Part shown: positions 3,001 through 20,257 of the stretch, piece after piece
How positions within the stretch are numbered: the stretch's first letter is position 1
How the letters are laid out: each line of letters starts with the position of its first letter
IMG/VR virus record: IMGVR_UViG_3300023174_000088
Coordinates: 91,410 to 114,968 of that record
Length of the DNA stretch: 23,559 nucleotides
Strand: one strand, 5' to 3'
From: a virus
Taxonomy: Duplodnaviria; Heunggongvirae; Uroviricota; Caudoviricetes
The notes under the pieces: generated by a model
The model's input: only the letters and a program-made list of their open reading frames with translations
What the model was told of the DNA's origin: nothing
Databases searched by the model: none
Position numbers and translations under genes: made by a program

Positions 3001-6000
3001 AAAAGAAGCAGAAAAGATAATTTCTTCCCAACAAGGACTGATTCTCATTCCAACAAGAGATACAATTTCACACAATGGGAGATTGTTAAAGGTTCCAAAA
3101 GGAAGACCTGTCCTGCAATTTGGAGATACATTAGAGTTTCTTAACAATAAGAAGTTTTCTCGCTCTCAGGCAAAGTCCATTTTTGAGGTGATGAAGGCAA
3201 TTGCTGAGGAAACTGTAACTCAAACAAAAGAAGGTAGGGAAATAAAATTTAATAGATCGTATTCCTTATTCTTACAGAATGTGCTGTTCTGGGTGAAGGG
3301 CACCACTACATCTGGTAACCAGATGTATATAGATGAGAAAAACATCTATATTGGAGGAAAGGCGTATTCCCTTGTAGACTTTGCTGATAAAGAGTCTGAG
3401 ATAGTTCAACAGCTCGAGGAAACTTACAATAACGTAAATAACAAAAGTCTTACAGAATACTTCTCAGAACCGTTTGTAGAATTCTATTATGAGGATGGAG
3501 AGATTAAAGATAGGGAATGGAAAAACTACCAGTCTTATCTATTGTCTTCAAAAACTCCAGATGGCAAAGCAAGAAACATAAATGAAACTCCGCTTTCCAC
3601 AACCATCCCAACTCCTTCAGCATCAATCCCTTACACGCACAAGCAAAAGTATGCAATTCTGATAGGAATGGAACTTCCTATTTCACAACCACAAACTTCC
3701 ACACCCCCTCCTGCAGGAGACACTACAGAAGCTCCTAAGATTGGAGAATATGTTGCTGATGGAACTACAAAAAATAAGATTAAACTCAAAGAACCTATTG
3801 GAGAGATTGAGTTTGTGGCTTCTATAGATGGTACAAACACAGTATCTGTTAAAGTCTTTTCTGGCCCTAATACAGAAGCTATATCAAAAGATGCTGCAAA
3901 GGTTAAGCCCTATTTAGACTTCTTGAAAGCTGCAGGAAAGTTTGATGCTAAAAAAGATGTAGAGCAACTTCTTCTTGAATTCATTTCAATGAACGTTGCC
4001 CAAAGGCTCCAAACTCAGCTGAATGAACAAATAAAGAATGCAAAACCTGCTGGCGCCACTGAGGTGATTTCAGAAGAAGAGTATAAAAACTTCATAGACA
4101 AGAACATTGTATCAGATGTAATCTTAAATTCCATTGCTGACAAAGTGGTGTCAAGAGCACCTCTTTCCGAAAGGGAACTTGTAATATTTAATGCAAGAGT
4201 TGCTGATATAAATGAAATCATTAGAAAGAAAAAAGCCCCCACCACTGATTCCGATAAAGAGATTAGAGATAAAATAAAATCTCTACCTGATTCTGTGTAC
4301 AATGATGATAAAAACACTGGACTATTTTTAGATGTCATTATAGATAAAACAAAAGATTATAAAAAAGGAGCAGACATAAATCAAGAAGGATTTATCGTAA
4401 ACTTCTCTGGTGTTGATTCTAAAGATGATATCAAATTAACAATTAATAGTGTTTCTAAAGAAGGTGATAATTATAGAATTATTGGTAGAGGAGGAATTGG
4501 TGCAAAAGCTGCTAGTTATAATTTTTTAGTTTCTCCGTCTGGAGAAATACTTTCTATTACTTCAGCTGAAGGTAAAACTTTCTCTGGTCAAACAAACGCA
4601 AACATTCGCCCAACAGAAGCAATAAGAAAATCTATACAGTCTACATCAAATAAAGATTTGATGAATAGATTAGCTTCTTTAGCAACAGCCCCTGTTTCTA
4701 CAGATGCTAAAGCTAGTATAGACAGTGATATTCAAAATGTATTAAATGCTAAAAATAAAGAAGAATTAATTAAAGCTGCTGAGAAACTTGTTGGTATAAA
4801 TCCTTATGATCAGGGTGCTGTTAGTATGGGAACAAGAGCTGCACTAATGACTCCTGGATCTTTTGATAGAGGAAAAACTTTATTTTTAGAAGAAATAAAA
4901 GGTATTATTGAAATAAAAAGAAAATCAGAAGGAGTTAAACCTACAGATGCTAAAGCTGATATAGAAAGAAGAAAAAAAGAAGCTTTACAACCAAAAACTA
5001 AAAATAATCCTAATGGATATGATGTAATAAAAATTAGTGACACAAAAACAGACTACTATTACTTTTATCAAAATCCTTCAGATAAAGAAGATTTTGAAGG
5101 TATGAGAACAAGCTCTAAAGCAGAAATACTTAAACAAATTGCAGCTAAGTATGATGCAGAACTAGCTAGAGAACTTTATAAAGAAATCAAAGCTGGTAAA
5201 ATGGTTACTGATATGACAATAGCTGAGCAAGCTGTTGCTGATAAATATATTACTCCTGAACTTAGAGCAAGTGTTGACGCAGAACTAGCTGCTTTAGAAG
5301 GAACTAAGCCACAGGAAAAGGAATTAAAAACAGTAGAATCTGCAATTAGAGCAGTGTTTGGGTTTTATGACCAAGCCAAAAGAAATCAAGAAGCTGGCAA
5401 TAAGTTACGAGATGATGAGAAAGATGTGATTAACGATCCTCTGAAGTATTTGGAAAAGGAACGTGATGGATACCAAAATAGTATAAATGAGATAATTCCT
5501 AAACAAATAGCAAGTCTTGAGGCATCAAAAGCTAAAAAGAATGAAAAAGAAATAGCTAAAATAAATGAGAAGATAGAAGCAAATAAAAAAGACTTAGCTA
5601 GATATGAAGAATGGCTGAAGCAGATAGATGGTGTAATAGCTAAGGTGAGGGAAGTTATTGCTTCTTCAGAAAAATCTTCTAAGACAGGAGAACAAACAAA
5701 AAAAGATCCTAATAAATTTGATGGGTTTGACGGTCCAAGTGGAGACTTTAGAAGGATATCTCTTGGAGAAGTGGGTGGTATGACAGAGGAAGAGATTGAG
5801 CTGTTTAAAGCTTGGCATGCAGAGAATGTTCCGTTTATTCCTTATGAGATTTTAGAAAACATCATTAAAACACATAATGGTGGAAAGGCATGGGGTGTAT
5901 TTGAGAATGGTGTGGCTAAGTTCGTAAGAGGTGGACTCAGAGGTACAGAATATCATGAGGTGTTTGAGGCCATCTGGAAAGGCTTCCTTACGGAGCAGGA

Positions 6001-9000
6001 GAGAGTAGCTCTTATGACAGAGTTCAGATCTAGAAGCGGTCAGTTTGTAGATAGGGAATCTGGCATGAGAATAGACTACTCAGCTGCTACAGATAGACAA
6101 ATAAAAGAAAGAATAGCTGATGACTTTTCTGATTTCAGACTTGGTAAGCTTCCTGCCAGGAACCTTAGTGAAAGAATTTTGAGATTTTTCAAGGCTATGA
6201 TTGACTTCTTTAGAAGCTTTGTAACAAAACCTTCTTTAAAAGATAAGCTGTTCAATGCTATTGATACAGGAAAGTTTAAAGAGAGAGTTCTTCCTGAATC
6301 TGTAAAAAATGAAGCTGCTGAATACAGGGCTGTTGAAGGACTTACAGAACAGCAAACACATGAGTTTGTTGAAGATATGACAGCAAGGGCTGCTGGGATT
6401 CTCTTTAAAGAGGCTGATAAAAAGACACTGTTCAACCCTGAGGGTATTACAAGCGTTAAGATGTTCTCAGAGATTGAGAGAATGTACGAGTCTGAAAGGA
6501 ATGCCAGTGGGTTTTCTAAGAGAGACATGTTGTCTGATGAGGCTTGGAGTCAGCTCAAGAGTAAGACAAAGAACTATCTTCGAACATTAGGTATAAACTT
6601 TAATGAGGAGGATAGGGTGAATATAAACGACGAGAACCATGATGGTCGTATGTATGCTGCAGAGCCTTTCTCTACAGACTGGAAGAAATCTTCTCCATTT
6701 GCAATCAAATTCACTCTTGCAACACTTTTGAAAACAGTTGCTATAAACCAAAAGAATAATCTCAGGCTGGAATTACCAAAAGCAGATACGTCAACAATTG
6801 GATATAAACTTATAAATTTCAGCAGGGCATTTGCCACACTCATGGACAAAATGTCTAATACGACAAGTGTTAGCAAGTTGGTTGAAAAGCTAATTGACAT
6901 ATCTAATAGAGACTCCGATTATGTAAGGTTGTTTAGAAGACTTGGTGGGGTCACCACTAAAGAGGGGGAATCTTACATACCTTTTGAAAACTTTGATAGG
7001 CATGATTGGAGACTGTTCATCAACTTCTTTCAGGTTTTTACAAAACAAAAACCAGAAGCCATCATACAATATAGAAGTGAAGGAGATGTCTATTCAAGAC
7101 CAGCAGCGTTTTTCTCTGCTTCAAAAGAGGTTGAGCTGTCATGGATGGAAAATCTAAAAGCATTGGCTCTTGATAAGGATTCTATTGTGTGGCTTGATAG
7201 AGATTCAACAACATATAAAGTTAATAGAAGGCCTCTTGAAGGAATTGACATATCAAAACCTCGAAGTGCAATAGGGTTTATTAGTGAGATAGGTATTAAG
7301 TTTCCGATGGAGTCATTCCTGAAACTGAGCACTGATGAACAGAATCAGTTTATGGATTCTGTTAGTCAGATATATAACTATTTAGGTAGTAATGAAGATG
7401 TGGCATCTATTAAAGGGAACACACTTGGCATCAGTGGACCTGTTTCTAAACTTAGCAAATTATATGTACAAGTGACCAATCCCAATAGGGAAAACACCCA
7501 TTTCAACATTGATGGTAAACGTGCACAAAACTATGCTGATAATAATGTAAGTTCTGTATTTGAGAATGTCTTTAATGAGGTGGATAGTTTGGAAGAGCTG
7601 TTTGAAGCAATGCCTCATCTTAAGGACGTATTCTCAGCAGGCTCTCAAGTGTTGAAAAAGGGAGGGTTGTTCTTTGATGCAGATGGTAAGAGGATAAAGA
7701 AAATGAAGGTTAAGACAATTGAGGGTACAAAGATTGTTGATAAGAACAAGGGCATGAGTAGTGCAAAGCTCAATCTTGGAGATAGATTTGTACAGGAGAT
7801 TAATGAAAATCTGGATGGCAACTATTACATCCTTGTCCCTGCAGATAGCTCTACAGAGTGGATGATGGAGATGGGTAACACCATAAGCTTCATTGATGTG
7901 GATAGTGGCAGAGCCTGGAATAAGGTGTACAAGATTTTCCAAGGATATTTAATGGACGACATCAACCTTGCGCTTGATTGGAAGAATAGAGAAAAGCTTA
8001 CAAATGTTGGAACAAAGGGTAAGCAACTTAGGTTTTTCAAAGACATCTTAGGCAAAAAGGAGTTGGAGGAAATTGAATCTTTGATTAATAGGGGAGCAAC
8101 AGAAGATGAAATCACTGATTATGTTAAAGACAATATTGAGGCTATAAACAATGCTGTAAAGGATTATATTAATGGAACTGTTAATGAGACAATTGATATT
8201 CTAAAAGAAAACAATAAGATTATTACAAAGGATGGTGGGTTTAAATTTCCAAATCTACTTGACGCATTTGCATTAAAGAGAAATGTAGGCATTGACAAAA
8301 ACAATATGAGTGAAAAAGATGTCAATAGTCTTATTACATTTGTAAACATAAATTACATCATCAATAACATTGAATACCACAAAATCCTATTTGGAGATCC
8401 CTATCAGTTTGGTATTAAGGAAAAAGATGGCAAGGTGATTCTTGATGAGACAAAACGTATTAAATCATTCCTGTCTCCAAGAAGAACAACATTTGATCAT
8501 CCTGAATATAACAACCATTTGAACAATGAGTATAATGAAACTCCAAGCGGTATTGCTCTTTCTGGTAGAACAGAAGCTTATCCTTTTGGAGATCCTGGCT
8601 ACCACAACTTCAAATCCTACGTAAACACAGTTACAATTAAAGATGTGAAGATTGCAGGAAGTCTTGCAAACATCATGTCTGCATACGGTGATGTAAATGA
8701 AACTGATGCTATGTCCTGGCTTATGGATGGGACATATAGAGAAATTAAACTGAAGAATGGACAATGGCCTGATGAGGCAGAAGCTTGGCATCAATGGCAA
8801 ATGGCTTGGACAAGACAAAATCTTCCAGGGTATATATACAGGAATCCTGCCTTAGAAACAGAAGATAAGAAGATGATTTCCAAACCTGCTCCTAAATACA
8901 CAATAGAAGTTTTAAAGCCTATTGTCACTGGTGTTAAGTATGGGAAGTCAAACATTGATCTTGTTCTTGATAAGTTTTCTCAAATGCCCATCTATTATAG

Positions 9001-12000
9001 TATGGTGAAAGGCACCAACCTTGAAAATCTCTATCTTGAGATGGCTAGGAAAGATGTGGGATATGCGATTGTAGAATCTGGAAGGAAGGTTGGGGCTGAG
9101 GGCGTACATAGTCTTTACAATCCTGATGGTTCTTTTAACAAATCTGCATTCAATAATAACATCCAGATTCCTTGGAAGGCTTATGGTATTCAGGTGGAAA
9201 ACTCATATGAGGGAGAGAAACAACAAACCCGTGGTAGCCAAATCACTAAACTTGCATCTATAGATCTTTTTGAAAACGGTCAGGCAAGTGAGGCAGCCAA
9301 ACTTGAATATGCACGCAATAAGAGAATTCTTGATGAAATGCATGAGAATGCATACAGAGAATTTTTGAAAGACTTTGGAATCCAGGATGTTGGTAATGGA
9401 TTTGCCACAACCGCAGATAGCAATAAAAGAGTTTCAGAAATGCTTGTTTATGAGATGTTAAGAAGAAAACTCTCTGACAATGCTATAGACACTGTCCAGC
9501 TTGATGAAAACGAACAGTTCAGAATACCATTTGAAGCATCACCCTCATATGTACAGATAAGAGATATTCTCTATTCGATGATTGACAAGAAGATATTGTC
9601 TCCAAGAATGAACGGTGGTGCTCATGTACAGGTGTCTTCCACAATGTTTGAATCTGCTACAAAAGGGAGAAGTCTTGCTATGAAGACAGAAACTGGGTGG
9701 AGAAAAATCACCAAGAAAGAATACAAAAAACTCAGCGAAGAAGATAAGAAAAAAGTTGTCCTTACAGATGACACATTAAAGTTTTATACAAAAGAAGACC
9801 CTTATTGTGAAATTCTACTCCCTCACTGGTTTGGTGAGAAGTTGATGAAAGAGGCCAAGTTTAAAACAAAAGAAGCTCTTCTAACCTATCTAAATGACAC
9901 TGAAGAAGGGAAGAAAATACTTAGGGGAATCGGTTTCCGCATTCCTACAGATGCTTTGAACAAGATTGAAGTGTTTAGAGTGAAAGGGTTTCTTCCTGAA
10001 TATATGGGCGCTACAGTGGTGGTTCCTTCAGAAATCACCACAAAGGCTGGTTCTGACTTTGACATTGATAAACTCAGTATGTATTTGAAATCAGTCTATC
10101 TGGATCCAAATGGTAACATAAGACTTATACAATATAAGGGATCTGAGGAAGAAACTAAAGATTTTTATTCTCAAGTTTATGAGAATACAATCAGAAAGCA
10201 GATTAAGAGAATTGAAAGATTTGATGAGTTTAGAAAAAGGCTTGTTGACATATTTGATCAAATAGAAAGATATGATGGTGAGGAAACCGAGATGGAGTAC
10301 ATCCTCAGTCCAGAAGATTATGATTTCTATGAATACCACATCAAACTTATTGATGAAATAGATGCACAAGCAGAAGAAGCTGGCCTATACACATCTGATT
10401 ATATACGTGAACAGATAGACAGGCTCAAGGATGTAAAAGAAGAATTGAGAGCTGAAATTCTCAACGAAGAGATGAGAGAGAAGTTTGTAAATAGGATGTA
10501 CAAGAAATCACTTGAGAATGAATACTATGATTCTCTTGAGAAGCTGATTACACTTCCTGAAAACTTTGAAAGACTCATTAAGCCAACGGATGATGCAGGT
10601 ATTAAAGATATATCTGATGAAATTGATTCATTGATAAACTACGATGAGTCTAATATCATGAACAGGCTTCTTAACAGGAACTACATGACATCTTTGAGAC
10701 ATTCATTTGTTGTTGCAAAAAGATGGGTGGGAATTGGTGCTGTTAATATTACAGGCCATTCTCTTGCCCAGAAAACAACTCTGATCGTCAATACAGACAT
10801 GTTCAATAAACTTTCAGGTAGAGACAAAGACATAATTGGAGATGGCTCAATCGCTCTCCCTCATAATAAGGTGACTATTAATGGAAGAGAATTCATTTCT
10901 CTTTCTGGTAAGATGGATGCTGAGGATAAGCTTTACATTTCTGATGGCCTATCTGGGTATATAACTACATTTGTGGATGTGGCAAAAGATCCGTACATCA
11001 TGAAGATTATTAAATCTGATCTTGCTGTTGGCACATTCATGTTTTTGCAAAGAGTGGGAGTTCCTATTAGAACTTCCGCAATGTTCATGAATCAGCCAAT
11101 TATAAGAACCTATTTGCAAATGCTTGACTCAAGAGGGTCCAGAAACCTGTTTGATAAGAACATACAGGTTCTTGCAAAGATGTTGTTCTCTGACACCACT
11201 GGAGATATAGCAAGCGAAATTGATATAAATGTAGATGGTCTTTCTGATAATATTAAAAAATATTATTCTGGTAAAAAGCTTTCCCAGGAAGAGAATGCTG
11301 AGCAGCAAAAAATCCTTGATGAGTTTTTGAAATACGCAAAGATGGCAGAATTTAACTTTAAGTTTACACAGGCCACAAACTATGACACATCAAAATTCAG
11401 AAGTGCTGAGAATCTCTTTAAGAAAGAATCTCTTACAGATAAGGCAATCGAATCAAATATAATATCTTCTGTTGAAGAAGTGCTCAAATCTTCACATCTC
11501 AAGAAGCAGAAAGATGTTCTCCACTCACTGGCAGATGCTATGGGTGTGATATTGAAACTGGATAAGTATCAATTCAGGAACATAACAAACAGTGTACTTA
11601 GAAGATTTGCAGAACGAGAGTTTCTTAGCAATGACGATTATGTTAAAATAGCAGCTAAGGTGAAGGCATCATTCCTCGATTTCATCATCCAGACAAAAAC
11701 GGGATTGAACAAGGATGTGAGAGAGCTTCTTGTAGATGCTGGTACGGCTGTTGTGGCCCAACTTGAAAAAGCAAAGATTGCCCATCCTGAAATGAAAATA
11801 CTTCAGGAGTTACAGCCAGCCAGCTCTGATCGTATAGGTGGAGCAAAAACGGTGAAACTTGCTGTGAACATTAAAGAGGCATATGATGAAAATCTCTATA
11901 CAGGCTATATGAGGGAATTAAGGGACAACCCTGATACGACAAATCTATATTACAACATCATCTATGCGTCTCTTCTGCAAAACACCTATCAGTATTCTGT

Positions 12001-13570
12001 ATCAATAAGGAATATTATTCCTATAGAAGACTACGCTGAAACAATCACCCCAATCATAGACTCTCTCGTATCTGATGAGTCTGTACAGGCCTTTGCAGAT
12101 CAAAAATGGTTTGAGAGAAACAATTGGCAAGATGAAGATGTTGTAAGAACTGTCACCCCCAAGTTCTTGTTCCCGATAGATTTTAGAACTGGTGAACCAA
12201 TTGATCCTTCAACAGGAATGCCAACAGATGAACCAATAGGGGTTGATGAATGGGGCAATGAAATATATCAGTATACGTCCCCATCTTATATAGATATTAA
12301 AGACCTTGGAATACTTGGAAGAGACAGAAAAATCTTATTTTTAGGGGAGAAATACAACTATGTGGATGTTCAAAGTGAAATCATAAAGGTACCAAGAGTC
12401 ATCCAGATGGACGATGGTAGTAGGGTGGATGTTATGACTGGAAGAACAATCACTCCAGCAATGTTCAATGCCATGCGAAAGAAAGGAGACATCTCCTATA
12501 GAGATTACATTGGTTATGAAAAAGTGAGAGATGCTTATGGAAATCCCGTAATAGCAAAGGTGGATAAGCAGGGTAATGTTACATATGTATACAAGCTCAT
12601 CAACTTGTTTGGTGATGGTATATTTGCATCTGAATACTATTCAGATTTCAAACCTTCTCCTATAAATAACGGAACAATAAAACTTGAAAACGAAATACCA
12701 GTTGCTGATATAGTTGCTTATTATGGTGGAATAGTTAGTGCTGATGAAATTGCATCTTTACAGTCAGTGCCTAGAGCTGCAACCACTGTCACTTCTCCTG
12801 TAACTGACGGTAGAGCTAAAGTAGCAATGCAACCAATGAATGTCGAAAAAATCAAAAATGGTACAAAGACAACTACGACAAGAAGTGAAAGAGAGTTTGA
12901 AAAAATAGGAATTCCTATTGGTCAATCAGCTACAGTTAACTTTGGCGGACAGGATTTTACAGTGACAAACAGAGGATTTCTTACAGTCCAGGAAGCTGGG
13001 GGTAAGGAGGCAATGCTTAAATCTGAAGGATATGCATCTGTACAAGATCTTTTGTACCAACAAACAAAAGATTGGATTGGTGGAAAGGGTAGGTTGTATG
13101 TTTATGACATTAAACCTGTACAAGATGTTGAAGCAGAAATAGAAGATAGTGGTTCAATTGTATATGCTTCTGATATAGATGCAACTGGAATGACAACTTC
13201 AAGTCCTAGAGAGGGATATGTAATGGTGAAGTTTGATAGACTGGATGAGGAAGTGGAGTTTAAGAAATCTGAATTAGAACTGGCAAATGCAGATGATTTA
13301 TTTGAATATTCTTATTTTAATAATATAGAGGATGAGATAGGCGAAATGATTACTGTAGATAATGCAAAGTTAAAACTTCTTGATGTCACTGATACAGACT
13401 ATGAGCATATAAAAATTTTGAAACTGCAGTCAAAGTCTGGAAGAGTATTCCCTGCAATTATAGATTATGTTGAGGAAACAGGAGATACAAAAATTGACCC
13501 TAATCCTCCTTCAGATGAAGACCTTGGACTGAGTGATGATATGTATGACAGCGAAGACTTTAGTTGCTGA
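2..13570 (+). CDS. Giant virion-associated RNA polymerase polyprotein of crAss-like phage type (5'-partial, at least 4522 aa)
   Basis: The supplied ORF starts at TTG 206, but the frame is stop-free back to position 2 (GAVPLIGLQIGKASLYLNKLFAGSNKLDKVLDIAKSL...GLSLYGASRTE), so the true start lies upstream of the window. Contains GFRIPT (R at 9938), GSDFDIDKL (10049-10075), DETKR (8444-8458) and QQTRGSQITKL. Ends TGA-TAA at 13568-13573. Confidence 0.93.
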   Translation, partial: GAVPLIGLQIGKASLYLNKLFAGSNKLDKVLDIAKSLNKTEKQLLTLKNLAYAAEATKLSNGFRYGLSLYGASRTEAAVESRDAYRTIKDKLISDYRKQNGVDPSGAVLDEIEKYATDGMNVRFGINMTLLTASNAIQFGSLFKSFTNASKGAPGLFEAPVGELGKVGLAKGSIDVFEKKATTGLGAKVWESIKPTVKNVLTEGVYEEGGQFAAEKGVYDYYTRKYKNLKNPEYAKTWNTLNEVMKSTNEGLAEQFGSTEGIQNMLIGGITALITGGVSSKMRRLRGEPSKDERLQSAINILNNHKVTGILGDQYDSTLNSANISREMQEAANSGDVYKYKNLKHDQFFTYVMSRIPAGMHDITIEQLKMLKDLDKEQFEKAFGMNFDESNKKTVGEYVDSLIEKANSIKETADSLDFTFKNPFRNYVDPKTPEETEERLKHIVFNNWKKDLAYYASAEQDTKERLLSIEQDLSKINPLIDLDLVSKLTKKEGLQELTREYESQATTLEKSINEYTTPEDKRKLKSQVKALRTAIEKINLALTAKNLDTKTFEQLINFEIGGRTDITSKNYPSEKTANLFKLATDVNSLNARRDAASQSFDALTTEGGVNKYFEQADEMEEESEKEEEKPEQQPLTQTPQYTYKNAAGEIKPIDLNREYQIPTAKVAKLNKINDDKYEVVSPNGTITFYDNLEDAKEALDEINADLSELAKVKVIALNPDGTIKVEDISGNIQNIRAEDLEGYEGLETEQEKITRQKDQIDKEQKEIETRSGTVNTGDPTKETWEEEGFLKDANWLFTSGITESEDWADTTKSSPHVIRARKFLRKAKRLSNRNKLRAIVVTAKQLNALGLKGLAQLSYKKDLASDINEIEDVFDVEKGFVAQVFTVQEADGLYYVDEKGEKISKVGEQVDLNRVVFQTMPTTSLENRRGNPRYRKDQKDVAEKMAEAWKKKRAELFSAPENSYTTYEFVISRGIPEPSIVVNGIKEKNHVGTTLIDEDQKEAEKIISSQQGLILIPTRDTISHNGRLLKVPKGRPVLQFGDTLEFLNNKKFSRSQAKSIFEVMKAIAEETVTQTKEGREIKFNRSYSLFLQNVLFWVKGTTTSGNQMYIDEKNIYIGGKAYSLVDFADKESEIVQQLEETYNNVNNKSLTEYFSEPFVEFYYEDGEIKDREWKNYQSYLLSSKTPDGKARNINETPLSTTIPTPSASIPYTHKQKYAILIGMELPISQPQTSTPPPAGDTTEAPKIGEYVADGTTKNKIKLKEPIGEIEFVASIDGTNTVSVKVFSGPNTEAISKDAAKVKPYLDFLKAAGKFDAKKDVEQLLLEFISMNVAQRLQTQLNEQIKNAKPAGATEVISEEEYKNFIDKNIVSDVILNSIADKVVSRAPLSERELVIFNARVADINEIIRKKKAPTTDSDKEIRDKIKSLPDSVYNDDKNTGLFLDVIIDKTKDYKKGADINQEGFIVNFSGVDSKDDIKLTINSVSKEGDNYRIIGRGGIGAKAASYNFLVSPSGEILSITSAEGKTFSGQTNANIRPTEAIRKSIQSTSNKDLMNRLASLATAPVSTDAKASIDSDIQNVLNAKNKEELIKAAEKLVGINPYDQGAVSMGTRAALMTPGSFDRGKTLFLEEIKGIIEIKRKSEGVKPTDAKADIERRKKEALQPKTKNNPNGYDVIKISDTKTDYYYFYQNPSDKEDFEGMRTSSKAEILKQIAAKYDAELARELYKEIKAGKMVTDMTIAEQAVADKYITPELRASVDAELAALEGTKPQEKELKTVESAIRAVFGFYDQAKRNQEAGNKLRDDEKDVINDPLKYLEKERDGYQNSINEIIPKQIASLEASKAKKNEKEIAKINEKIEANKKDLARYEEWLKQIDGVIAKVREVIASSEKSSKTGEQTKKDPNKFDGFDGPSGDFRRISLGEVGGMTEEEIELFKAWHAENVPFIPYEILENIIKTHNGGKAWGVFENGVAKFVRGGLRGTEYHEVFEAIWKGFLTEQERVALMTEFRSRSGQFVDRESGMRIDYSAATDRQIKERIADDFSDFRLGKLPARNLSERILRFFKAMIDFFRSFVTKPSLKDKLFNAIDTGKFKERVLPESVKNEAAEYRAVEGLTEQQTHEFVEDMTARAAGILFKEADKKTLFNPEGITSVKMFSEIERMYESERNASGFSKRDMLSDEAWSQLKSKTKNYLRTLGINFNEEDRVNINDENHDGRMYAAEPFSTDWKKSSPFAIKFTLATLLKTVAINQKNNLRLELPKADTSTIGYKLINFSRAFATLMDKMSNTTSVSKLVEKLIDISNRDSDYVRLFRRLGGVTTKEGESYIPFENFDRHDWRLFINFFQVFTKQKPEAIIQYRSEGDVYSRPAAFFSASKEVELSWMENLKALALDKDSIVWLDRDSTTYKVNRRPLEGIDISKPRSAIGFISEIGIKFPMESFLKLSTDEQNQFMDSVSQIYNYLGSNEDVASIKGNTLGISGPVSKLSKLYVQVTNPNRENTHFNIDGKRAQNYADNNVSSVFENVFNEVDSLEELFEAMPHLKDVFSAGSQVLKKGGLFFDADGKRIKKMKVKTIEGTKIVDKNKGMSSAKLNLGDRFVQEINENLDGNYYILVPADSSTEWMMEMGNTISFIDVDSGRAWNKVYKIFQGYLMDDINLALDWKNREKLTNVGTKGKQLRFFKDILGKKELEEIESLINRGATEDEITDYVKDNIEAINNAVKDYINGTVNETIDILKENNKIITKDGGFKFPNLLDAFALKRNVGIDKNNMSEKDVNSLITFVNINYIINNIEYHKILFGDPYQFGIKEKDGKVILDETKRIKSFLSPRRTTFDHPEYNNHLNNEYNETPSGIALSGRTEAYPFGDPGYHNFKSYVNTVTIKDVKIAGSLANIMSAYGDVNETDAMSWLMDGTYREIKLKNGQWPDEAEAWHQWQMAWTRQNLPGYIYRNPALETEDKKMISKPAPKYTIEVLKPIVTGVKYGKSNIDLVLDKFSQMPIYYSMVKGTNLENLYLEMARKDVGYAIVESGRKVGAEGVHSLYNPDGSFNKSAFNNNIQIPWKAYGIQVENSYEGEKQQTRGSQITKLASIDLFENGQASEAAKLEYARNKRILDEMHENAYREFLKDFGIQDVGNGFATTADSNKRVSEMLVYEMLRRKLSDNAIDTVQLDENEQFRIPFEASPSYVQIRDILYSMIDKKILSPRMNGGAHVQVSSTMFESATKGRSLAMKTETGWRKITKKEYKKLSEEDKKKVVLTDDTLKFYTKEDPYCEILLPHWFGEKLMKEAKFKTKEALLTYLNDTEEGKKILRGIGFRIPTDALNKIEVFRVKGFLPEYMGATVVVPSEITTKAGSDFDIDKLSMYLKSVYLDPNGNIRLIQYKGSEEETKDFYSQVYENTIRKQIKRIERFDEFRKRLVDIFDQIERYDGEETEMEYILSPEDYDFYEYHIKLIDEIDAQAEEAGLYTSDYIREQIDRLKDVKEELRAEILNEEMREKFVNRMYKKSLENEYYDSLEKLITLPENFERLIKPTDDAGIKDISDEIDSLINYDESNIMNRLLNRNYMTSLRHSFVVAKRWVGIGAVNITGHSLAQKTTLIVNTDMFNKLSGRDKDIIGDGSIALPHNKVTINGREFISLSGKMDAEDKLYISDGLSGYITTFVDVAKDPYIMKIIKSDLAVGTFMFLQRVGVPIRTSAMFMNQPIIRTYLQMLDSRGSRNLFDKNIQVLAKMLFSDTTGDIASEIDINVDGLSDNIKKYYSGKKLSQEENAEQQKILDEFLKYAKMAEFNFKFTQATNYDTSKFRSAENLFKKESLTDKAIESNIISSVEEVLKSSHLKKQKDVLHSLADAMGVILKLDKYQFRNITNSVLRRFAEREFLSNDDYVKIAAKVKASFLDFIIQTKTGLNKDVRELLVDAGTAVVAQLEKAKIAHPEMKILQELQPASSDRIGGAKTVKLAVNIKEAYDENLYTGYMRELRDNPDTTNLYYNIIYASLLQNTYQYSVSIRNIIPIEDYAETITPIIDSLVSDESVQAFADQKWFERNNWQDEDVVRTVTPKFLFPIDFRTGEPIDPSTGMPTDEPIGVDEWGNEIYQYTSPSYIDIKDLGILGRDRKILFLGEKYNYVDVQSEIIKVPRVIQMDDGSRVDVMTGRTITPAMFNAMRKKGDISYRDYIGYEKVRDAYGNPVIAKVDKQGNVTYVYKLINLFGDGIFASEYYSDFKPSPINNGTIKLENEIPVADIVAYYGGIVSADEIASLQSVPRAATTVTSPVTDGRAKVAMQPMNVEKIKNGTKTTTTRSEREFEKIGIPIGQSATVNFGGQDFTVTNRGFLTVQEAGGKEAMLKSEGYASVQDLLYQQTKDWIGGKGRLYVYDIKPVQDVEAEIEDSGSIVYASDIDATGMTTSSPREGYVMVKFDRLDEEVEFKKSELELANADDLFEYSYFNNIEDEIGEMITVDNAKLKLLDVTDTDYEHIKILKLQSKSGRVFPAIIDYVEETGDTKIDPNPPSDEDLGLSDDMYDSEDFSC
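4698..4965 (+). repeat. Imperfect 25-bp direct repeat pair CTACAGATGCTAAAGCT(AG/GA)TATAGA encoding TDAKA(S/D)I(D/E)
   Basis: Copies at 4698-4722 and 4941-4965: 17 bp exact, then 2 mismatches, then 6 bp exact. Confidence 0.85.
5153..5290 (+). repeat. 15-bp direct repeat pair GA(T/C)GCAGAACTAGCT encoding DAELA
   Basis: Copies at 5153-5167 and 5276-5290, one mismatch. Confidence 0.75.
5750..6330 (+). other. Zincin-like (MPTase-like) domain in ORF1 with altered metal motif HEVFE
   Basis: AWGVFENGVAKF...GTEYHEVFEAIW (HEVFE at 5954-5968), downstream KERIADDF (from 6104) and ILRFFKAMIDFFRSF helix. This is the usual layout of phage polyvalent-protein zincins, but with HExxE in place of HExxH. Confidence 0.75.
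8400..11100 (+). other. Catalytic core of two-barrel (crAss/phi14:2 gp66-type) RNA polymerase within ORF1; boundaries approximate
   Basis: Metal-binding DxDxD as DFDID at 10055-10069, preceded by RIPT...VVVPSEITTKAGS. The DFDID variant is the crAss-type form, versus DFDGD in cellular RNAPs. Confidence 0.92.
12812..13120 (+). other. ASCH (PUA-like) domain near the C-terminus of the RNAP polyprotein
   Basis: VAMQPMNVEKIKNGTKTTTTRS matches the ASCH signature GxKxxTxR (12860-12883). It is followed by a beta-rich segment, KSEGY and a terminal strand RLYVYDIKPV, about 100 aa in total. Confidence 0.8.
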
Positions 13571-13594: not shown

Positions 13595-16500
13595 ATGGCC
13601 AAAATTTGTAGTTTAGGAATTAAAAGAGTTGTTACAGATTTGAGTAAGGACAAGCCTTGGTTTAAATATAAAGAGGAAAGTAACTTTATACAAGTGGTGC
13701 CCTCTCCAAAAGCAAGGATCAATGAGTCCAATCTTAAGGCTGTTGCTGCCACCACTGCCAACTTTTTAAATAGGTCAATCAATAAAGGTCTGGCTGTTGG
13801 AGATGTTTTTGAAGCCACCGTATTGTATGATGGTAGGGTGGGAGTTTTAATTTCTCCTACAGATAGGCAACTACGCCTTATTAATGCAAAAGATGAAGCT
13901 GAAAAAGAGCAGCTTATAAAAGAGGTGGAGCAAGAACAAGCCGAACAAGAACAAAATGAATTGAGAGAGGCTCAAGAGGCAGAAAGAAAAAGAGGTGGTT
14001 ATACAGAGGAAGACAGGGGTGAGTTTTATCAGAAACCAGCAGAACGAGTTCAGCAAGTTATATCTGAAAAGCTGAGAACCAAGCTGTTAAACTTTTTAAA
14101 AGCTTTGAATATAGACGTCGCTCTTAATGCAGACGATATTCTAAACAGTACAAATTTCAAGAACAAACCACTTGCAGCATTTGATGTTCTACAAAAGTTT
14201 ATGGCATTTGCCTCTGGACAAGAGAATCTTCTCCCTGAACAGGTGGCATCTGTAATGTACACCTTTCTTGGTAGAAAGTCCACGCTCTCCAAGGCTCTAT
14301 GGAAAAACATAGACAAGTGGGAGAGATATGGTGAGGTGTACGACTATTATAAAAATTCAAAAAATAAGGTTGACTCTGATATATTCTATGCAGATGATGA
14401 ATTTGTTGAAAATGAGAAGTTCAGTTCATTTGCTCATAGAATGGCAATTATAAAATTCCTTGAAGAGTCTCTGCTTAGACTTGACTCTGGTGAACAGGCT
14501 ACAGAAAAAAGAGAGAATGAGGACATTGATTCCAACTATTTCAAACGTAGAGGAAGACTAAATCCATACCAAGGAAACTTTCTACAGAGATTGTTCAATT
14601 CTATTTACAACTGGTTCCAAGATACATTGGGAAAACCTGTATTTGAAAAGTATTCAAGGAAAGACCTTGTTGACCTAGGACTCGATATTGCTGATGACAT
14701 CTTTAAAGAGGATTACAAAAAGTGGATGAGATCTTTCATTGAAAAAGATGGAGAGCTGTACGACAGTTCAGGAAATAAGCTTGAATTGAAAAGCTATGAT
14801 GAATCTATAAACAAAGATCCATTTGCTAAAGAAATTATTGAAAAACTGTTTAACAATCCATTCATTAGATTTAAACTTAGTGGATCTTTAACAATTAGAA
14901 AATATGGAATTGTTTTTAGAAAGAAGGAGGAGGACATTCATGACATTGATGGTGTAATAACCCTTGATACCTTCAAACAAGATCCTGAATATGATAATTT
15001 TAGGAAGTGGGTTCAAACTGAAGGTTTATATCTGATGAACTCAGGAAGAGCTAAGATATTCCATAGGAAGATGAAAGAGAAACTTCCTGGATTGAACTGG
15101 TATCAAAACCTGCTCTACTCTTTTCCAAACTTCCAGCTTACAAATAGTTTCATTGGAAGAGACCATAAACAAGGGGAGAGTATAACAATTCAGGGATATG
15201 TTGAACATCCTACAGAAAAGGAAATTGATAAAACCACTGGTGAGGAAAGACCTAAAAGATATGCACTTGACTTCTTTTTGAGGGTGGATGAAGGCAACTA
15301 TCCTGAAATATTTGACAACTATTGGAAAGACTGGAAGCAGATATTTGAAGCAAAACTTAACATGGGAAGATCTAAAGATATTTCAGATCTCATCTATTTT
15401 GCTCCATTCCTCAAAGACAAATATAAGTTTACAAATAGAGGATTTAGATATTTCACTTTCATGGAACGTCCTATTGCCCAAGCTCAGGAAACCACTGAGG
15501 GAGTGAAAACCCAACTTAGGGGAACAGAAACATCAAAAGCATCTCCTGAGACAATTGCACTTCTTAGGGATTTCTTGAAGCGGATTGGTGTGGATGTGAA
15601 GATGTTGCAACAAATTGTTGTAGGTGGAAAGAAACAAGATGTTAATGGTGTTGCTCGAATAATGCAGGGTCTTATTGAGGTGATTGAGGGCAGGGAAGCT
15701 GAGGCTCTTCCTGAAGAAGCTATGCACTTTGCCGTTGAGATTATTAAACAAACTAATCCCAAGCTGTACAACCAACTCTTGAAGGAAATCAATAGCTATG
15801 CTATGTACAAACAGGTGTTGGCTGATTATAGCTCAGATCCAAACTACCAAACAAAAGACGGTAAACCTAATATACAAAAGCTTAAGGATGAGGCTATTGG
15901 AAAGGTTCTAACTGATACGCTCATTTACAAAAGTGAGGGGTCTATAGAAAAGCCCGAAAACCTCTCAAAGGTACAATCCTGGTGGTCTGCAATACTTGAT
16001 TGGCTCAAGAGTTTGTTTAATAAAAGTGGATTTGACAAAGCTGCAATGAGCATCCTCTCTGGAAAGAACATAGGCACTCTTGAGGACATCAGAACTTCTG
16101 AGGACAATGTCTTCATGCAAAAAACCAAACAAGACACAGTGTACGATTCAATCAAGGAGATTAGCGCTAAGATTGATAGTAGGGGAAAAGAGGGCTATTA
16201 CATTGGTGATAAGAAAGTTCCAAGAAGGGTTACAGATATTGTTAAAGACTGGTATGATAGAAGATTTGCTGAGAAACAACTAACTGATTCAGAATTCCAG
16301 AAGGCAGTGAACGACCTCAAAGCTGAAAAAGGAACAGCTGGACATGCTGATATAGATTACATCATCGAGCTATTTGTAGATAAAGATGGGTATTTAAGGC
16401 AAACTGAACTAGACGATAGTTCATATACATCCCAAATAGATCCAAATAGCAGGAAGATTTATGACTTACTTAAAGATAATGTCAGACAAAGATTGAATTC

Positions 16501-19500
16501 ATTTAAGCCAGGAACAAGATTTATGTCTGAAATTGTTGTGTACGATCAGGCAAGAGGCTTGGCTGGTACAATTGACTTTCTTGCCATAGATAGGGATGGT
16601 AAGGTGAGCATCCTTGACTGGAAGTTTATGGACTTAAACATAGATAGATATGATGATGTTCCATGGTATAAGGTGAATGCTTGGCGAACACAAATGGATC
16701 AATATAGATTGATTTTGCAGAATGCATATGGTATAAAGCCTCAAGACTTTGTACAAACCAGAATGATTCCTATAAGAGTTAGGTATAGCTCTGGTGACCC
16801 TGCAAGGAATGTTCTTCCTCAACTTTTGGATATTGAAATAGGTGGCGTAGTGGTGAAGGACATAAAAGAAGACTATTTGATTCCTGTAGCTACAAAAGGA
16901 GAGAAAACTGGTATAAAGAAAATAGATAAGCTTATAGAAAGACTTAACGACGTTTATACAAAACTTTCCGAAAAGAAAGCAATACCTTCTGAGAAGCTAA
17001 ACAAGGCTGAACAGTTGAATGCCTTGTTCACAGCAATCAGACATCTCCAGATGAGACAAGATGTTGGACCTCTTGTTGATCAGGCAAAAATATTGAACAA
17101 GCAGCTAAAAGAGCTTATACAATCCTATAGGGAAAATATTGAGGGTAAAGATCCAAACTCCTTCACAGATGACCAGGTGACAGATTTTACAGAATCAATT
17201 GCACTTGGTCTTGATGCTATTTCTACATATACACAACTATCAGGAGATTTAAAACCTATATTTGACAAAGACCTTTCTGAGGAAGATAAGGAGCTTTGGA
17301 ACAGTGTTCGTAATGCAACTGAAGATGCTAGAGACATCCATAGTGAACTTAAGGAAATTGACGAAGAATTTACAAGTGATGTAATTGGTAAGAGAGAAGG
17401 AGTTGAAAATCTATCAACACCTGAGAAAATTATAAAGGGATTGGCAAGATGGTTTGGTAATACCGCCACATTGCAGCTAAAATCTTTACATGTTCTATAT
17501 AGAAAAGTGAACAAGGCTTTTGGATATGCTGCGATGGATAGCTTGAATGAGACAAAAAAGCTACTTGAAATAAAGGAAAGGTATCAGGCATGGGCAGCCT
17601 CTAAAGGTTTGACCATGAAAAACTACTTTGACATTATAAAGAAAAAGCCTCAACTAAATCAAAAAGATGCTGAGAATAGAAGAAGGATTGAAATAGCTGA
17701 TTTAAATAAAATAAAATCTACTATTTCTCAAGAATCTTACAAACAAGAATTAGATAAAATCAATGAGCGTTATGAAAGATCTATTAAGGATCCAAACGAA
17801 CTTATAGATGAATTCGATCCTAATTTTTATTCTGAGCTCAAGAAAAGGATACAGGACAAAGACCTTAAATGGATTAGAGAAAACGTAGACAGTTCTGAAT
17901 ATAATATTTATTTGAAAGAAAAGCTTAAGGAAGAAATAGATAGGATTGAGAATAAGGTGAGGATTGGTACAGATGAAGAAATCCAAAAACAAATAGACAG
18001 AGAAAAGGCTCAGGCAGCATCTCTCTATAACATATCCACAACAGAGTCTCCAGGATGGTATTTGTATAATGATATTAGAAAATTTCCAAGAAGGGATAAG
18101 TGGGAGTCCAAAGAGTGGAAAGAACTATATAGAAAAGACTCTTCTGGTAATTACGTAAATAAACCTGCTGTAGATTTTTATGAATACATCAAAGAAAGAA
18201 ATAATTACTACCAGGAAATAGGATATATACATGCTAAACAAGCAAGAACGTTCCTTCCTTGGGTGAGACAAGGTATGTCTGAGAAACTTATTTTTGGAGG
18301 AAAGATTACACTAGGAGAACAGTTTCTCAGGAACATTTCTCTAGACGAGAATGAAACGGGATTTGGTCAAATTGATCCTCAAACAGGTAAGCCCATTGAC
18401 GTTATTCCAGTTTACTTTACAAGAGAACTTCCAGCTGGAGAGGAGAGTAAGGACCTGTTTAAAACCATGGCTCTATATAATGAGTTTGCCATAAAGTTCA
18501 AATATCTTTCTGACATTGAATCTCAGGCCAAAGCACTTCTTAGACTAGAAAGAAACAAGAAAGCAATCAGAACATCTTATTTTGGAAAAACCCAATATGA
18601 AGAAGGAGATATAGCATACACTCCTGATAATAATGAAAACGCAGATCTGTATGAAAATATGATGAAGGCAATCCTTTATCAACAAAAGTTTATTGAAAGT
18701 GAAACGTTTGACCAGATACTTTTGAAGTTTGGTAAGTTTGGAGAGAAGATTAACAAGAAGCTTGGATATAAACTTCTTCCTGAAAATCTAGAAGGAAGAC
18801 AAATGAGTATAAACAAAACTTTAAACCAACTCAATACCACATTCCAAATCAATGCGTTAGGATTAAACTTCCTATCCTCTTTCTCAAACTTCTTTGGCGG
18901 TAGTTTCCAGTCTTTAATTAATTCTGGTAAATATTTTACAAAACCAGAACTGGTTTCTACAGAACTATGGATTTTGTCACAGAAGATGTATGGATTGGAA
19001 GATCTTGATGCAAAGAAAGCGATTGCAGCATTGGAATACTTCCTCCCACTTACAGAAAACTATGGGGGAGAGATTGCTAAAAAACTAGCACTAAACAAAA
19101 TTAATGGTCAAAACATTCAAGACTTCCTGATGATTCTGATGAGAAATTCAGAAAAAGCAGTCCAAACCACAAACTTCTTTGCATATTTAAGAAATACAAT
19201 TGTTGAGAACGGCAAGTTGTATAATGCAAGAGAATACCTTAGATCTACTCCTGAATATGAAAACATGTATTTAGGAAGCAAAGAACAAAGGGATGCAAGA
19301 ATGGAAAAGTTTGAAAGGGATGTACAAGACTTGATAAAAGAAAAAGGTGTCACTAAACTCGGTAAGGTTGTAAATGGTGAGTTTGTAATTCCAGGAGTTG
19401 ATAGAAAGTCAGATACGGTGATTGAACTTAGGAGAATTGTGCAACAGATAAACAACGATGCTCTAGGGTCTTTAAGTCCAGATAATAGAAGAATGATTAA

Positions 19501-20257
19501 TATGAATGTATATGGCAATTCATTCATGGTATTTAAAAACTGGATACCTAGGCTTGTAGATGTTAGAATTGGCGCACTTAAATATAATTCTGCCTCAGAT
19601 GCCTATGAGTGGGGTAGGACAAGGATGCTATTTAAAATCATAAGTGATGATCTTTTAGGGATGATTGGCAATGTTAGAAACTCTATTGTTGCAAATGATA
19701 AGGGAATTGAATATATTAGAAAACTTTATGAAACTAAAAAAGACCAATATGAAAGAGAAACAGGTAAAACTCTAGAGATGACAGAAAGCGAGTTTATAGA
19801 CCTGGTGAGACAAAATCTCAAAAATCAAATGCTGGACATGATTTTCTATGCTGTTCTTCTTTCTTTGCTTGCTGGACTAAAAGCTATTCCTCCAGATAAG
19901 GATGAAGATGCAGATGTGAAGAACCAATACAAATTCCTCTTAAGGGCAACAGATAAGCTTGTAGATGAGATTGGGTATTTCTATGATCCTACAAGTTTTA
20001 CAAAACTTGTAAGTGGTGGCCTATTTCCCTCTGTAAGACTCTTAGATAATTACAAAGCCCTACTTGTAAACTTCTTAAAGGAAAACTATGCTCTTGCTAC
20101 AGGAGATGATGAAACCGTAGAGAAAAACTATGTGATAAAATATCTCCTAAAATCTTTCCCAGTGCTCTCTCAAGGACAGGCCATTCTTCCAATGTTCTAC
20201 CCTGAGCTTGCAAAAGACCTTGGTATCAAGATGCAATCTAGATCAGGTATAAGATAG
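13595..20257 (+). CDS. Giant virion/ejection polyvalent protein (2220 aa): 2x degenerate zincin module, nucleotidyltransferase, PD-(D/E)XK nuclease, helical C-terminal region
   Basis: ATG after A-rich leader (ataataaaaacaat), long ORF, stop TAG at 20255-20257. Domain motifs are listed separately. It lies directly downstream of the RNAP gene, like the large co-packaged proteins of crAss-like phages. Confidence 0.9.
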   Translation: MAKICSLGIKRVVTDLSKDKPWFKYKEESNFIQVVPSPKARINESNLKAVAATTANFLNRSINKGLAVGDVFEATVLYDGRVGVLISPTDRQLRLINAKDEAEKEQLIKEVEQEQAEQEQNELREAQEAERKRGGYTEEDRGEFYQKPAERVQQVISEKLRTKLLNFLKALNIDVALNADDILNSTNFKNKPLAAFDVLQKFMAFASGQENLLPEQVASVMYTFLGRKSTLSKALWKNIDKWERYGEVYDYYKNSKNKVDSDIFYADDEFVENEKFSSFAHRMAIIKFLEESLLRLDSGEQATEKRENEDIDSNYFKRRGRLNPYQGNFLQRLFNSIYNWFQDTLGKPVFEKYSRKDLVDLGLDIADDIFKEDYKKWMRSFIEKDGELYDSSGNKLELKSYDESINKDPFAKEIIEKLFNNPFIRFKLSGSLTIRKYGIVFRKKEEDIHDIDGVITLDTFKQDPEYDNFRKWVQTEGLYLMNSGRAKIFHRKMKEKLPGLNWYQNLLYSFPNFQLTNSFIGRDHKQGESITIQGYVEHPTEKEIDKTTGEERPKRYALDFFLRVDEGNYPEIFDNYWKDWKQIFEAKLNMGRSKDISDLIYFAPFLKDKYKFTNRGFRYFTFMERPIAQAQETTEGVKTQLRGTETSKASPETIALLRDFLKRIGVDVKMLQQIVVGGKKQDVNGVARIMQGLIEVIEGREAEALPEEAMHFAVEIIKQTNPKLYNQLLKEINSYAMYKQVLADYSSDPNYQTKDGKPNIQKLKDEAIGKVLTDTLIYKSEGSIEKPENLSKVQSWWSAILDWLKSLFNKSGFDKAAMSILSGKNIGTLEDIRTSEDNVFMQKTKQDTVYDSIKEISAKIDSRGKEGYYIGDKKVPRRVTDIVKDWYDRRFAEKQLTDSEFQKAVNDLKAEKGTAGHADIDYIIELFVDKDGYLRQTELDDSSYTSQIDPNSRKIYDLLKDNVRQRLNSFKPGTRFMSEIVVYDQARGLAGTIDFLAIDRDGKVSILDWKFMDLNIDRYDDVPWYKVNAWRTQMDQYRLILQNAYGIKPQDFVQTRMIPIRVRYSSGDPARNVLPQLLDIEIGGVVVKDIKEDYLIPVATKGEKTGIKKIDKLIERLNDVYTKLSEKKAIPSEKLNKAEQLNALFTAIRHLQMRQDVGPLVDQAKILNKQLKELIQSYRENIEGKDPNSFTDDQVTDFTESIALGLDAISTYTQLSGDLKPIFDKDLSEEDKELWNSVRNATEDARDIHSELKEIDEEFTSDVIGKREGVENLSTPEKIIKGLARWFGNTATLQLKSLHVLYRKVNKAFGYAAMDSLNETKKLLEIKERYQAWAASKGLTMKNYFDIIKKKPQLNQKDAENRRRIEIADLNKIKSTISQESYKQELDKINERYERSIKDPNELIDEFDPNFYSELKKRIQDKDLKWIRENVDSSEYNIYLKEKLKEEIDRIENKVRIGTDEEIQKQIDREKAQAASLYNISTTESPGWYLYNDIRKFPRRDKWESKEWKELYRKDSSGNYVNKPAVDFYEYIKERNNYYQEIGYIHAKQARTFLPWVRQGMSEKLIFGGKITLGEQFLRNISLDENETGFGQIDPQTGKPIDVIPVYFTRELPAGEESKDLFKTMALYNEFAIKFKYLSDIESQAKALLRLERNKKAIRTSYFGKTQYEEGDIAYTPDNNENADLYENMMKAILYQQKFIESETFDQILLKFGKFGEKINKKLGYKLLPENLEGRQMSINKTLNQLNTTFQINALGLNFLSSFSNFFGGSFQSLINSGKYFTKPELVSTELWILSQKMYGLEDLDAKKAIAALEYFLPLTENYGGEIAKKLALNKINGQNIQDFLMILMRNSEKAVQTTNFFAYLRNTIVENGKLYNAREYLRSTPEYENMYLGSKEQRDARMEKFERDVQDLIKEKGVTKLGKVVNGEFVIPGVDRKSDTVIELRRIVQQINNDALGSLSPDNRRMINMNVYGNSFMVFKNWIPRLVDVRIGALKYNSASDAYEWGRTRMLFKIISDDLLGMIGNVRNSIVANDKGIEYIRKLYETKKDQYERETGKTLEMTESEFIDLVRQNLKNQMLDMIFYAVLLSLLAGLKAIPPDKDEDADVKNQYKFLLRATDKLVDEIGYFYDPTSFTKLVSGGLFPSVRLLDNYKALLVNFLKENYALATGDDETVEKNYVIKYLLKSFPVLSQGQAILPMFYPELAKDLGIKMQSRSGIR
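14063..14635 (+). other. Degenerate zincin-like module 1 of ORF2
   Basis: KLLNFLKALNIDV...AAFDVLQKFMAF...LLPEQVASV...FLQRLFNSIYNWF aligns by eye with module 2; no His is retained. Confidence 0.6.
14810..15460 (+). other. Pol-beta superfamily nucleotidyltransferase domain (AbiEii/MenT-like motif IV) within ORF2
   Basis: FKLSGSL (GS at 14882-14887), IHDIDGV (DxD at 14942-14950), YALDFF (third Asp at 15269), EAKLNMGRSKDISDL (15347-15391). Confidence 0.78.
15542..16021 (+). other. Degenerate zincin-like module 2 of ORF2
   Basis: LLRDFLKRIGVDV...NGVARIMQGLIEV...ALPEEAMHF (EEAMH at 15713-15727)...KDEAIGK...WWSAILDWLKSLF. Confidence 0.7.
16220..16860 (+). other. RecB/Cas4-like PD-(D/E)XK nuclease domain within ORF2
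   Basis: KGTAGH (16328-16345), SEIVVYD (E at 16529), LAGTIDFL (D at 16574), ILDWK (DxK at 16616-16624), QMDQY (16691-16705): the full motif series in the expected order. Confidence 0.88.

Follow-up and report, generated by a model that had tools for sequence, protein, structure and literature searches.

The DNA analysed here (the window, 23,559 nucleotides) is the final 23.6 kb, positions 91,410 to 114,968, of the 114,968-bp IMG/VR virus record IMGVR_UViG_3300023174_000088, a member of the Caudoviricetes with a CheckV completeness of 99%. Our subject is a nucleotidyltransferase (NTase) domain encoded in P0001, an open reading frame (ORF) of 2220 amino acids that is flanked by an RNA polymerase (RNAP) ORF on one side and by tail-fibre-like genes on the other. 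A preliminary description of this DNA, made from its letters, had placed an apparently intact AbiEii/MenT-like NTase at 14810-15460, inside a protein ejected from the virion beside the phage RNAP. That stretch is in frame within P0001 and corresponds to residues 406-622; it falls inside the NTase domain, whose true limits are slightly wider. The ORF, the domain and its conserved elements are the following.

13595..20257, plus strand: ORF P0001, 2220 amino acids, an N-terminal NTase cassette fused to a body that is, by homology, like the cargo protein gp49 of crAss001
14789..15469, plus strand: Pol-beta-fold NTase domain, residues ~399-625, recognised by an AlphaFold2 model, fold matches and conservation
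14876..14887, plus strand: motif I, L428-S-G-S431 (hG[GS]), with [ST]-G-S invariant family-wide
14918..14920, plus strand: Arg442, invariant, between motifs I and II, counterpart of the DUF1814 motif II arginine (PMC3985639)
14939..14950, plus strand: motif II, H449-D-I-D452, the putative metal-binding DxD, with H449, D450 and D452 invariant
15266..15277, plus strand: LDFF strand with the predicted third acidic residue, D559, invariant
15347..15391, plus strand: C-terminal helices, EAKLNMGRSKDISDL, holding K587-L-x-x-x-R592 and K594-D595-x-x-D598, which correspond in compact form to DUF1814 motifs III and IV (PMC3985639)

The motifs to which the preliminary description had drawn attention, LSGS, HDID, LDFF and EAKLNMGRSKDISDL, lie where it had put them, and their conservation in 105 homologues and about 125 further ones shows that they are not there by chance. 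A k-mer-seeded homologue search gave 87 giant proteins of 1800-3000 amino acids and 35 shorter ones, with 44-66% identity in the NTase region. Eighteen positions are invariant in the 105-sequence alignment: S429, G430, S431, G438, R442, E446, H449, D450, D452, D559, F560 and F561, and, toward the C-terminus, K587, G591, R592, K594, D595 and D598. Searched with a profile, 1.84 billion cluster representatives then yielded 185 proteins at E<=1e-3, of which 101 reach <=1e-10 and 58 reach <=1e-30, and the same residues are nearly invariant in the ~125 more distant cluster representatives, giving the family signature [ST]GSG...R...[EDN]..HDxD ... DFF ... AKMGRxKDxxD. When 20 full-length relatives are compared, conservation is highest in the NTase region, with a mean identity of 0.56 at residues 401-450 and 0.75 at residues 551-600, against ~0.28 elsewhere. 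Since the catalytic-type residues hardly vary in a protein that otherwise drifts, the alignments argue strongly that the active site is under strong purifying selection and is a working one rather than a relic. Together with the modelled Pol-beta fold, this upholds the earlier claim of an intact NTase, and we consider it very probable that the domain is enzymatically active.

The fold was modelled twice with AlphaFold2, first from 36 sequences (predicted local distance difference test, pLDDT, 78.5) and then, for residues 395-630, from 105 sequences (pLDDT 87.1; predicted template modelling score 0.82). In the model, residues ~399-625 adopt an NTase alpha/beta fold, and D559 is in a predicted strand (model E157-169), so that its assignment as the third acid comes from the sequence and from the model strand. 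An exhaustive VIA-align search against 48,161 PDB representatives gave MenT1 as the best full-length structural match (Z 7.9; root-mean-square deviation 3.7 Å over 155 residues, model 12-229), with ANT(2'')-Ia (7.6) and LnuA (7.2) tying with MenT in Z, and then TglT/MenT3 (7.1), TM1012, JHP933 and the Megavirus poly(A) synthase (6.0 each) and MenT4 (4.9); a Tetrahymena complex I subunit (7tgh_S3; 6.3 over 92 residues), which is not an NTase-family entry, also ranks among them. Foldseek searches of the PDB, AFDB clusters, Swiss-Prot models and BFVD gave weak rows throughout, the best being E 0.011 in the PDB (JHP933 of H. pylori), 1.1e-3 in AFDB clusters and 1.5e-3 in BFVD (an unnamed entry); several AbiEii/AbiGii entries appear among the AFDB clusters at E 0.013-0.047, and in the ESM Atlas a Bacteroidota AbiEii cluster aligned to the domain at template modelling scores of 0.49/0.51. 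The comparison of an AlphaFold model with known structures, which had been proposed with the preliminary description, therefore returns an NTase fold with MenT1, MenT3 and JHP933 among the closest.

By sequence profile, the domain belongs to no catalogued family. PF08843 (AbiEii) gave no match to the domain at E<=10, none among 36 relatives at E<=1, and none when the genome was searched in six frames at E<=0.01; scans of the domain against NCBIfam and PADLOC were likewise without a match. When the domain and 36 + 10 relatives were compared with Pfam, PHROGs, NCBIfam and PADLOC, no meaningful match was obtained, one of the 36 relatives matching NTP_transf_2 at E 0.017, and a profile search of PDB sequences gave chance matches only. 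For a direct comparison we took 201 Bacteroidota genomes, of which 79 carry the family, and drew 29 PF08843 proteins from them. Aligned with these by hhalign, two phage-family profiles placed motifs I, II and III/IV in register, at a level that is not significant (P 0.005 and 0.037; probability 7% and 1.4%). The label AbiEii/MenT-like thus holds for the fold, as judged from MenT1, MenT3 and JHP933, and for the layout of the motifs; the profile comparisons do not support membership. In the model the domain is closest to the DUF1814 toxins (MenT1/3, JHP933, AbiEii) in fold and motif layout; from its motifs it may work like a DUF1814 enzyme and may be a very distant offshoot of that group. It is best described as a separate, phage-only NTase family that has no Pfam, NCBIfam, PADLOC or PHROG model and whose membership of AbiEii is not established.

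The domain does not stand alone in P0001, and three more domains or regions in this ORF, together with the ORF upstream, bear on its role.

2..13570, plus strand: giant ORF, 4753 amino acids in the full genome and open at the window's 5' end, a crAss-type virion RNAP by its SDFDID motif (10052-10069) and its match to crAss001
14087..14788, plus strand: conserved, probably helical domain, residues ~165-398, which precedes the NTase in 161 homologues and belongs to no known family
15563..16102, plus strand: EExxH-motif domain, residues ~657-836, common to crAss001-type gp49 and frequently found with the NTase
16094..16750, plus strand: PD-(D/E)xK (RecB/Cas4-like) nuclease domain, residues ~834-1052 (phrog_298, E 5.3e-6)

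The NTase is the last part of a cassette of ~600 residues, in which a variable N-terminus is followed by the conserved helical domain. Between the poorly conserved first ~100 residues and the helical domain lies a Glu/Gln-rich, strongly acidic low-complexity linker, EAEKEQLIKEVEQEQAEQEQNELREAQEAERK (13886-14000, residues ~98-135). Within the helical domain, the sequence EQVAS (14237-14251, residues 215-219) was considered as a decayed zincin (HExxH) motif and was ruled out, 160 of the 161 homologous N-termini being without HExxH. Searching the ESM Atlas with the N-terminal 395 residues gave no usable match.

The profile search found the NTase at many positions within proteins of 2000-6000 amino acids. 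In at least five cluster representatives (P0167, P0192, P0208, P0212 and P0226), the NTase and the RNAP motif G[SA]DFD[IV]D are in one polypeptide, with the NTase on either side of the catalytic motif. In some phages the first ~575-650 residues are instead a gene of their own that ends just past the NTase, as on a 118-kb contig where a 574-amino-acid product is encoded between an RNAP-type giant of 3947 amino acids and a gp49-like protein of 1934 amino acids. One further architecture, P0095 (1193 amino acids; L009:10001-13582), joins a complete CCA-adding enzyme (PolyA_pol, HD and a weak tRNA_NucTran2_2) to a following NTase at residues 946-1183, and is found on 11 contigs, placed between two giant genes. 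Relatives of the whole protein swap modules, among them ART-PolyVal (P0141, 36.1 bits, above the cut-off), PD-(D/E)xK, PIF1/UvrD helicase and LysM. The domain is present on 39 IMG/VR contigs of 24-226 kb; it was absent from 185,579 bacterial and archaeal species genomes in a pattern-based scan, and the NTase region was absent from 50,697 GenBank phage records by megablast and tblastn. The family is restricted to phage contigs. Two homologues are short and seemingly stand-alone, on contigs of just 1-2.5 kb. A seemingly stand-alone homologue of 240 amino acids (L164:1034-1756) is translated properly only with TAG read as Gln, and because of this reading the family is taken to be present also in stop-codon-recoded phages.

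Our analysis of the upstream ORF confirms the earlier placement of the NTase beside the phage RNAP: the 800 residues around SDFDID align over 97% of their length, at E 9e-26, with the gp47-type "putative RNA polymerase" of crAss001. This ORF has no Pfam match at E<=0.01 and no PHROG match at E<=0.001, and at these same thresholds an ASCH domain at its C-terminus (12812-13120) is without hidden Markov model (HMM) support. Beyond the cassette, residues 625-1348 and 1616-2172 of P0001 are collinear with residues 140-885 and 1159-1668 of a 1714-amino-acid protein of cr108_1 (E 1e-20 and 1e-13), and residues 657-836 match residues 177-368 of the gp49-like protein of Kehishuvirus, the crAss001 genus (E 1.6e-8 in a five-sequence database and 1e-3 among all phages). 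The Kehishuvirus protein, of 1349 amino acids, is encoded as an "RNA-polymerase subunit" directly after the RNAP, and it and the cr108_1 protein, both from Crassvirales, match one another. In crAss001, mass spectrometry found gp47, gp49 and gp50 in the virions, and these were proposed to be ejected cargo (PMC10172136); the phi14:2-type RNAP has been described as translocated into the host (PMC7886860). Because the body of P0001 is collinear with gp49-like proteins, its gene is syntenic with the RNAP, and crAss001 gp49 is in virions, it is reasonably likely that P0001 is packaged and leaves the virion together with the RNAP as infection begins.

In the EExxH domain, the sequence EEAMH (15713-15727, residues 707-711) is an instance of a family-wide [TP]EExxH found in 50+ homologues, with counterparts PEEFAHF in the gp49-like protein of the crAss001 genus and HEAIH in one relative; from this comparison EEAMH looks like a conserved variant and not a local decay of a zincin motif. 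The nuclease-domain motifs IDFLAID, LDWK and QMDQY appear intact as read from the sequence.

As to the rest of the genome of this crAss-like phage, the terminase, the portal protein and the major capsid protein all have matches among crAss-type PHROGs, and the best relatives of the terminase are those of Leptolyngbya phage Lbo-JY46, Cellulophaga phages phi17:2 and phi4:1, and Crassvirales. Since the two ends of the record share ~140 bases (genome 1-~140 and 114830-114968), the genome is probably complete and circularly permuted, despite its IMG/VR class, linear. The sole tRNA gene in the 115-kb genome is a tRNA-Arg(TCT) on the minus strand at genome ~50184-50256 (L004:10184-10256). A CCA-adding enzyme (PF01743) was not found in the phage's own genome, and neither was ART-PolyVal, the latter a weak negative, as control genomes gave nothing either. 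Downstream of P0001, two Cys-rich ORFs (20330-22959) without a family match precede a 109-amino-acid ORF at 22961-23290, which matches N-terminal parts of tail-fibre PHROGs (phrog_1276, 11338 and 693).

Based on these findings, we lean toward the view that the domain is an active NTase module of an injected cargo protein, and we leave its acceptor open. P0001 would be packaged and would enter the host with the RNAP at the onset of infection. D450, D452 and D559 would hold two Mg2+ ions, a nucleoside triphosphate (NTP) would be bound by K587, R592, K594 and D595, and a nucleoside monophosphate (NMP) would be moved to a hydroxyl acceptor. That acceptor may be an RNA 3' end, either the acceptor ends of host tRNAs, as with MenT, or the transcripts of the co-injected RNAP. 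An RNA or tRNA 3' end is our leading guess, held tentatively; we favour it because the best full-length structural match and the pattern of motifs III/IV are of the MenT/AbiEii type, and because the module recurs in one polypeptide with RNAP and, once, with a CCA-adding enzyme. A bolder proposal, which we regard as possible and somewhat doubtful, is that the cassette works together with the virion RNAP and is no passenger: a MenT-type RNA 3'-end NTase injected by a large environmental crAss-like clade. Such a partner could tag the acceptor ends of host tRNAs, which would lead to an immediate and selective takeover of translation, or it could tail or repair RNA 3' ends (early transcripts or tRNAs) alongside the CCA-adding enzyme of the one fusion.

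Several points weigh against this interpretation. No HMM library recognises the domain, and the hhalign comparison with AbiEii, as given above, is not significant (probability 1-7%). The packaging of P0001 leans on distant homology (21-31% identity) to gp49-class proteins of crAss001. The fusion to a CCA-adding enzyme is a single architecture, perhaps one more independent effector. Finally, blocking tRNAs at the onset of infection would hurt the translation of the phage too, which has one tRNA gene of its own.

MNT antitoxins AMPylate HEPN toxins, and the phage domain could in the same way nucleotidylate a protein or a small molecule, serving counter-defence, for instance by AMPylating a host defence protein, or acting as ANT(2'') and LnuA do on antibiotics. 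The tie of these two enzymes in Z makes such a role a serious rival. We nevertheless find it rather unlikely: the C-terminal K..R.+DxxD was described as specific to DUF1814 (PMC3985639), MenT1 is the best match over the full length, and the PF10706 and PF01909 HMMs match nothing in the family, save one member at E 0.017.

Whether the domain reaches the host at all is a separate matter, since P0001 might not be packaged. The NTase would then be confined to late activity in the cell that makes the phage, or the cassette would have its part in assembly and none in the onset of infection. The 574-amino-acid separate-gene form, which might stay outside the virion, would fit this. The fusions to gp49-like and RNAP-bearing giants in many lineages, the presence of gp47, gp49 and gp50 in crAss001 virions (PMC10172136) and the described translocation of the phi14:2-type RNAP (PMC7886860) point the other way and make an unpackaged P0001 rather improbable.

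The PD-(D/E)xK nuclease in the same polypeptide raises the thought that the domain acts on DNA, for example by extending DNA ends, of phage or host, with nucleotides as the genome enters. However, some phages encode the cassette by itself, and some proteins that carry it have no nuclease region, so that the link is not obligate; the matches to Pol-X enzymes are confined to the palm and score below those to the small NTases; and the 8-kDa, fingers and thumb domains are not evident. Because the NTase and nuclease modules are separable, a DNA-end role is highly unlikely. That the domain is a pseudo-enzyme or structural module keeping an NTase-like fold, as the modest structural scores might allow, is hardly credible because of active-site conservation: the GS, DxD, third D, K, R and KDxxD are kept in >200 divergent sequences while the rest shows ~28% identity.

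The reading that we prefer, an active NTase in an injected cargo protein, would bear on a class of proteins of which little has been made. In a very abundant phage group, few proteins are as poorly understood as the giants of the crAss-type transcription block, which are essentially unannotated beyond the RNAP barrels; the block has been described as consisting of large multidomain proteins, without mention of an NTase (PMC7886860, PMC10172136). A full-text literature search for crAss together with nucleotidyltransferase found nothing relevant. Inside these giants a discrete, assayable enzyme module is now defined, with at least 185 cluster representatives, all in phage-like contexts, and with recurrent fusion to RNAP or to a gp49-like cargo protein. 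If this module enters the host with the phage and is active, the phage would be turning Abi/MenT toxin chemistry on its host, or on RNA of its own, as soon as infection begins, and the repertoire of phage polyvalent proteins would be widened by a Pol-beta NTase. Should the cassette moreover be a partner of the RNAP, then among the offensive enzymes that the phage injects the most conserved would have the fold of a bacterial abortive-infection toxin. With the invariant signature, residues can be chosen for mutagenesis and hundreds of metagenomic phage proteins can be annotated. The NTase family described here is new and serves as a module in cargo or polyvalent proteins of phages.

The domain can be compared with several known systems. 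ANT(2'')-Ia and LnuA are cellular antibiotic-resistance enzymes that modify small molecules; their alignments with the phage domain are shorter (131-132 residues), and there is no sequence-profile match between them and it. The likeness to DUF1814/AbiEii lies in hGS, an extended spacer, the invariant Arg442, DxD and then +DxxD, all in the same order, with a K..R before the last that resembles motif III in part. Dy et al. (2014, PMC3985639) defined DUF1814 by hG[GS], an unusually long 15-residue spacer to DhD, an Arg within motif II, a motif III of KLxAaxxR and a motif IV of +DxxD. The spacer between motifs I and II has 18 residues in the phage domain, versus 15 in DUF1814 and 9-13 in the Pol-beta consensus, and hhalign places R442 within one residue of the AbiEii Arg. 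Motif IV, K594-D595-I-S-D598, aligns with rD.YD of AbiEii, whereas motif III, K587-L-N-M-G-R592, has a K-R spacing of 5 instead of 7, lacks the aromatic residue and requires a gap of 4 in the hhalign alignment, so that motifs III and IV are compressed relative to those of DUF1814. MenT1 (Rv0078A) and MenT3/TglT (Rv1045), the M. tuberculosis DUF1814 tRNA NTase toxins, share 6-15% identity with the phage domain; at the position of their phospho-acceptor Ser/Thr, two residues before the first Asp (T39 in MenT1 and S78 in MenT3; PMC11375011), the phage domain has I448-H449 instead. AbiEii and MenT are encoded with an adjacent antitoxin (AbiEi or MenA) in a bicistronic operon, whereas the phage NTase is internal to a 2220-amino-acid ORF, beside which there is no small antitoxin-like partner gene and no AbiEi neighbour.

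At the level of the whole protein, P0001 is like crAss001 gp49 and the cr108_1 protein in the collinearity of residues 625-2172, in its place directly after the RNAP gene and in the shared EExxH, and differs from crAss001-type gp49 proteins in carrying the ~600-residue NTase cassette. It also recalls the polyvalent proteins described by Iyer, Burroughs, Anand, de Souza and Aravind (2017; PMC5512222), which are giant multi-domain proteins with swappable catalytic modules. The NTase, the PD-(D/E)xK nuclease and the EExxH domain of P0001 fit this idea, and DNA-linked delivery is predicted for both. Among polyvalent proteins, Pol-beta NTases have been reported only in conjugative elements (PMC5512222); the NTase of P0001, in contrast, is of a different NTase family, and the proteins that carry it are from phages and linked to the virion RNAP block.

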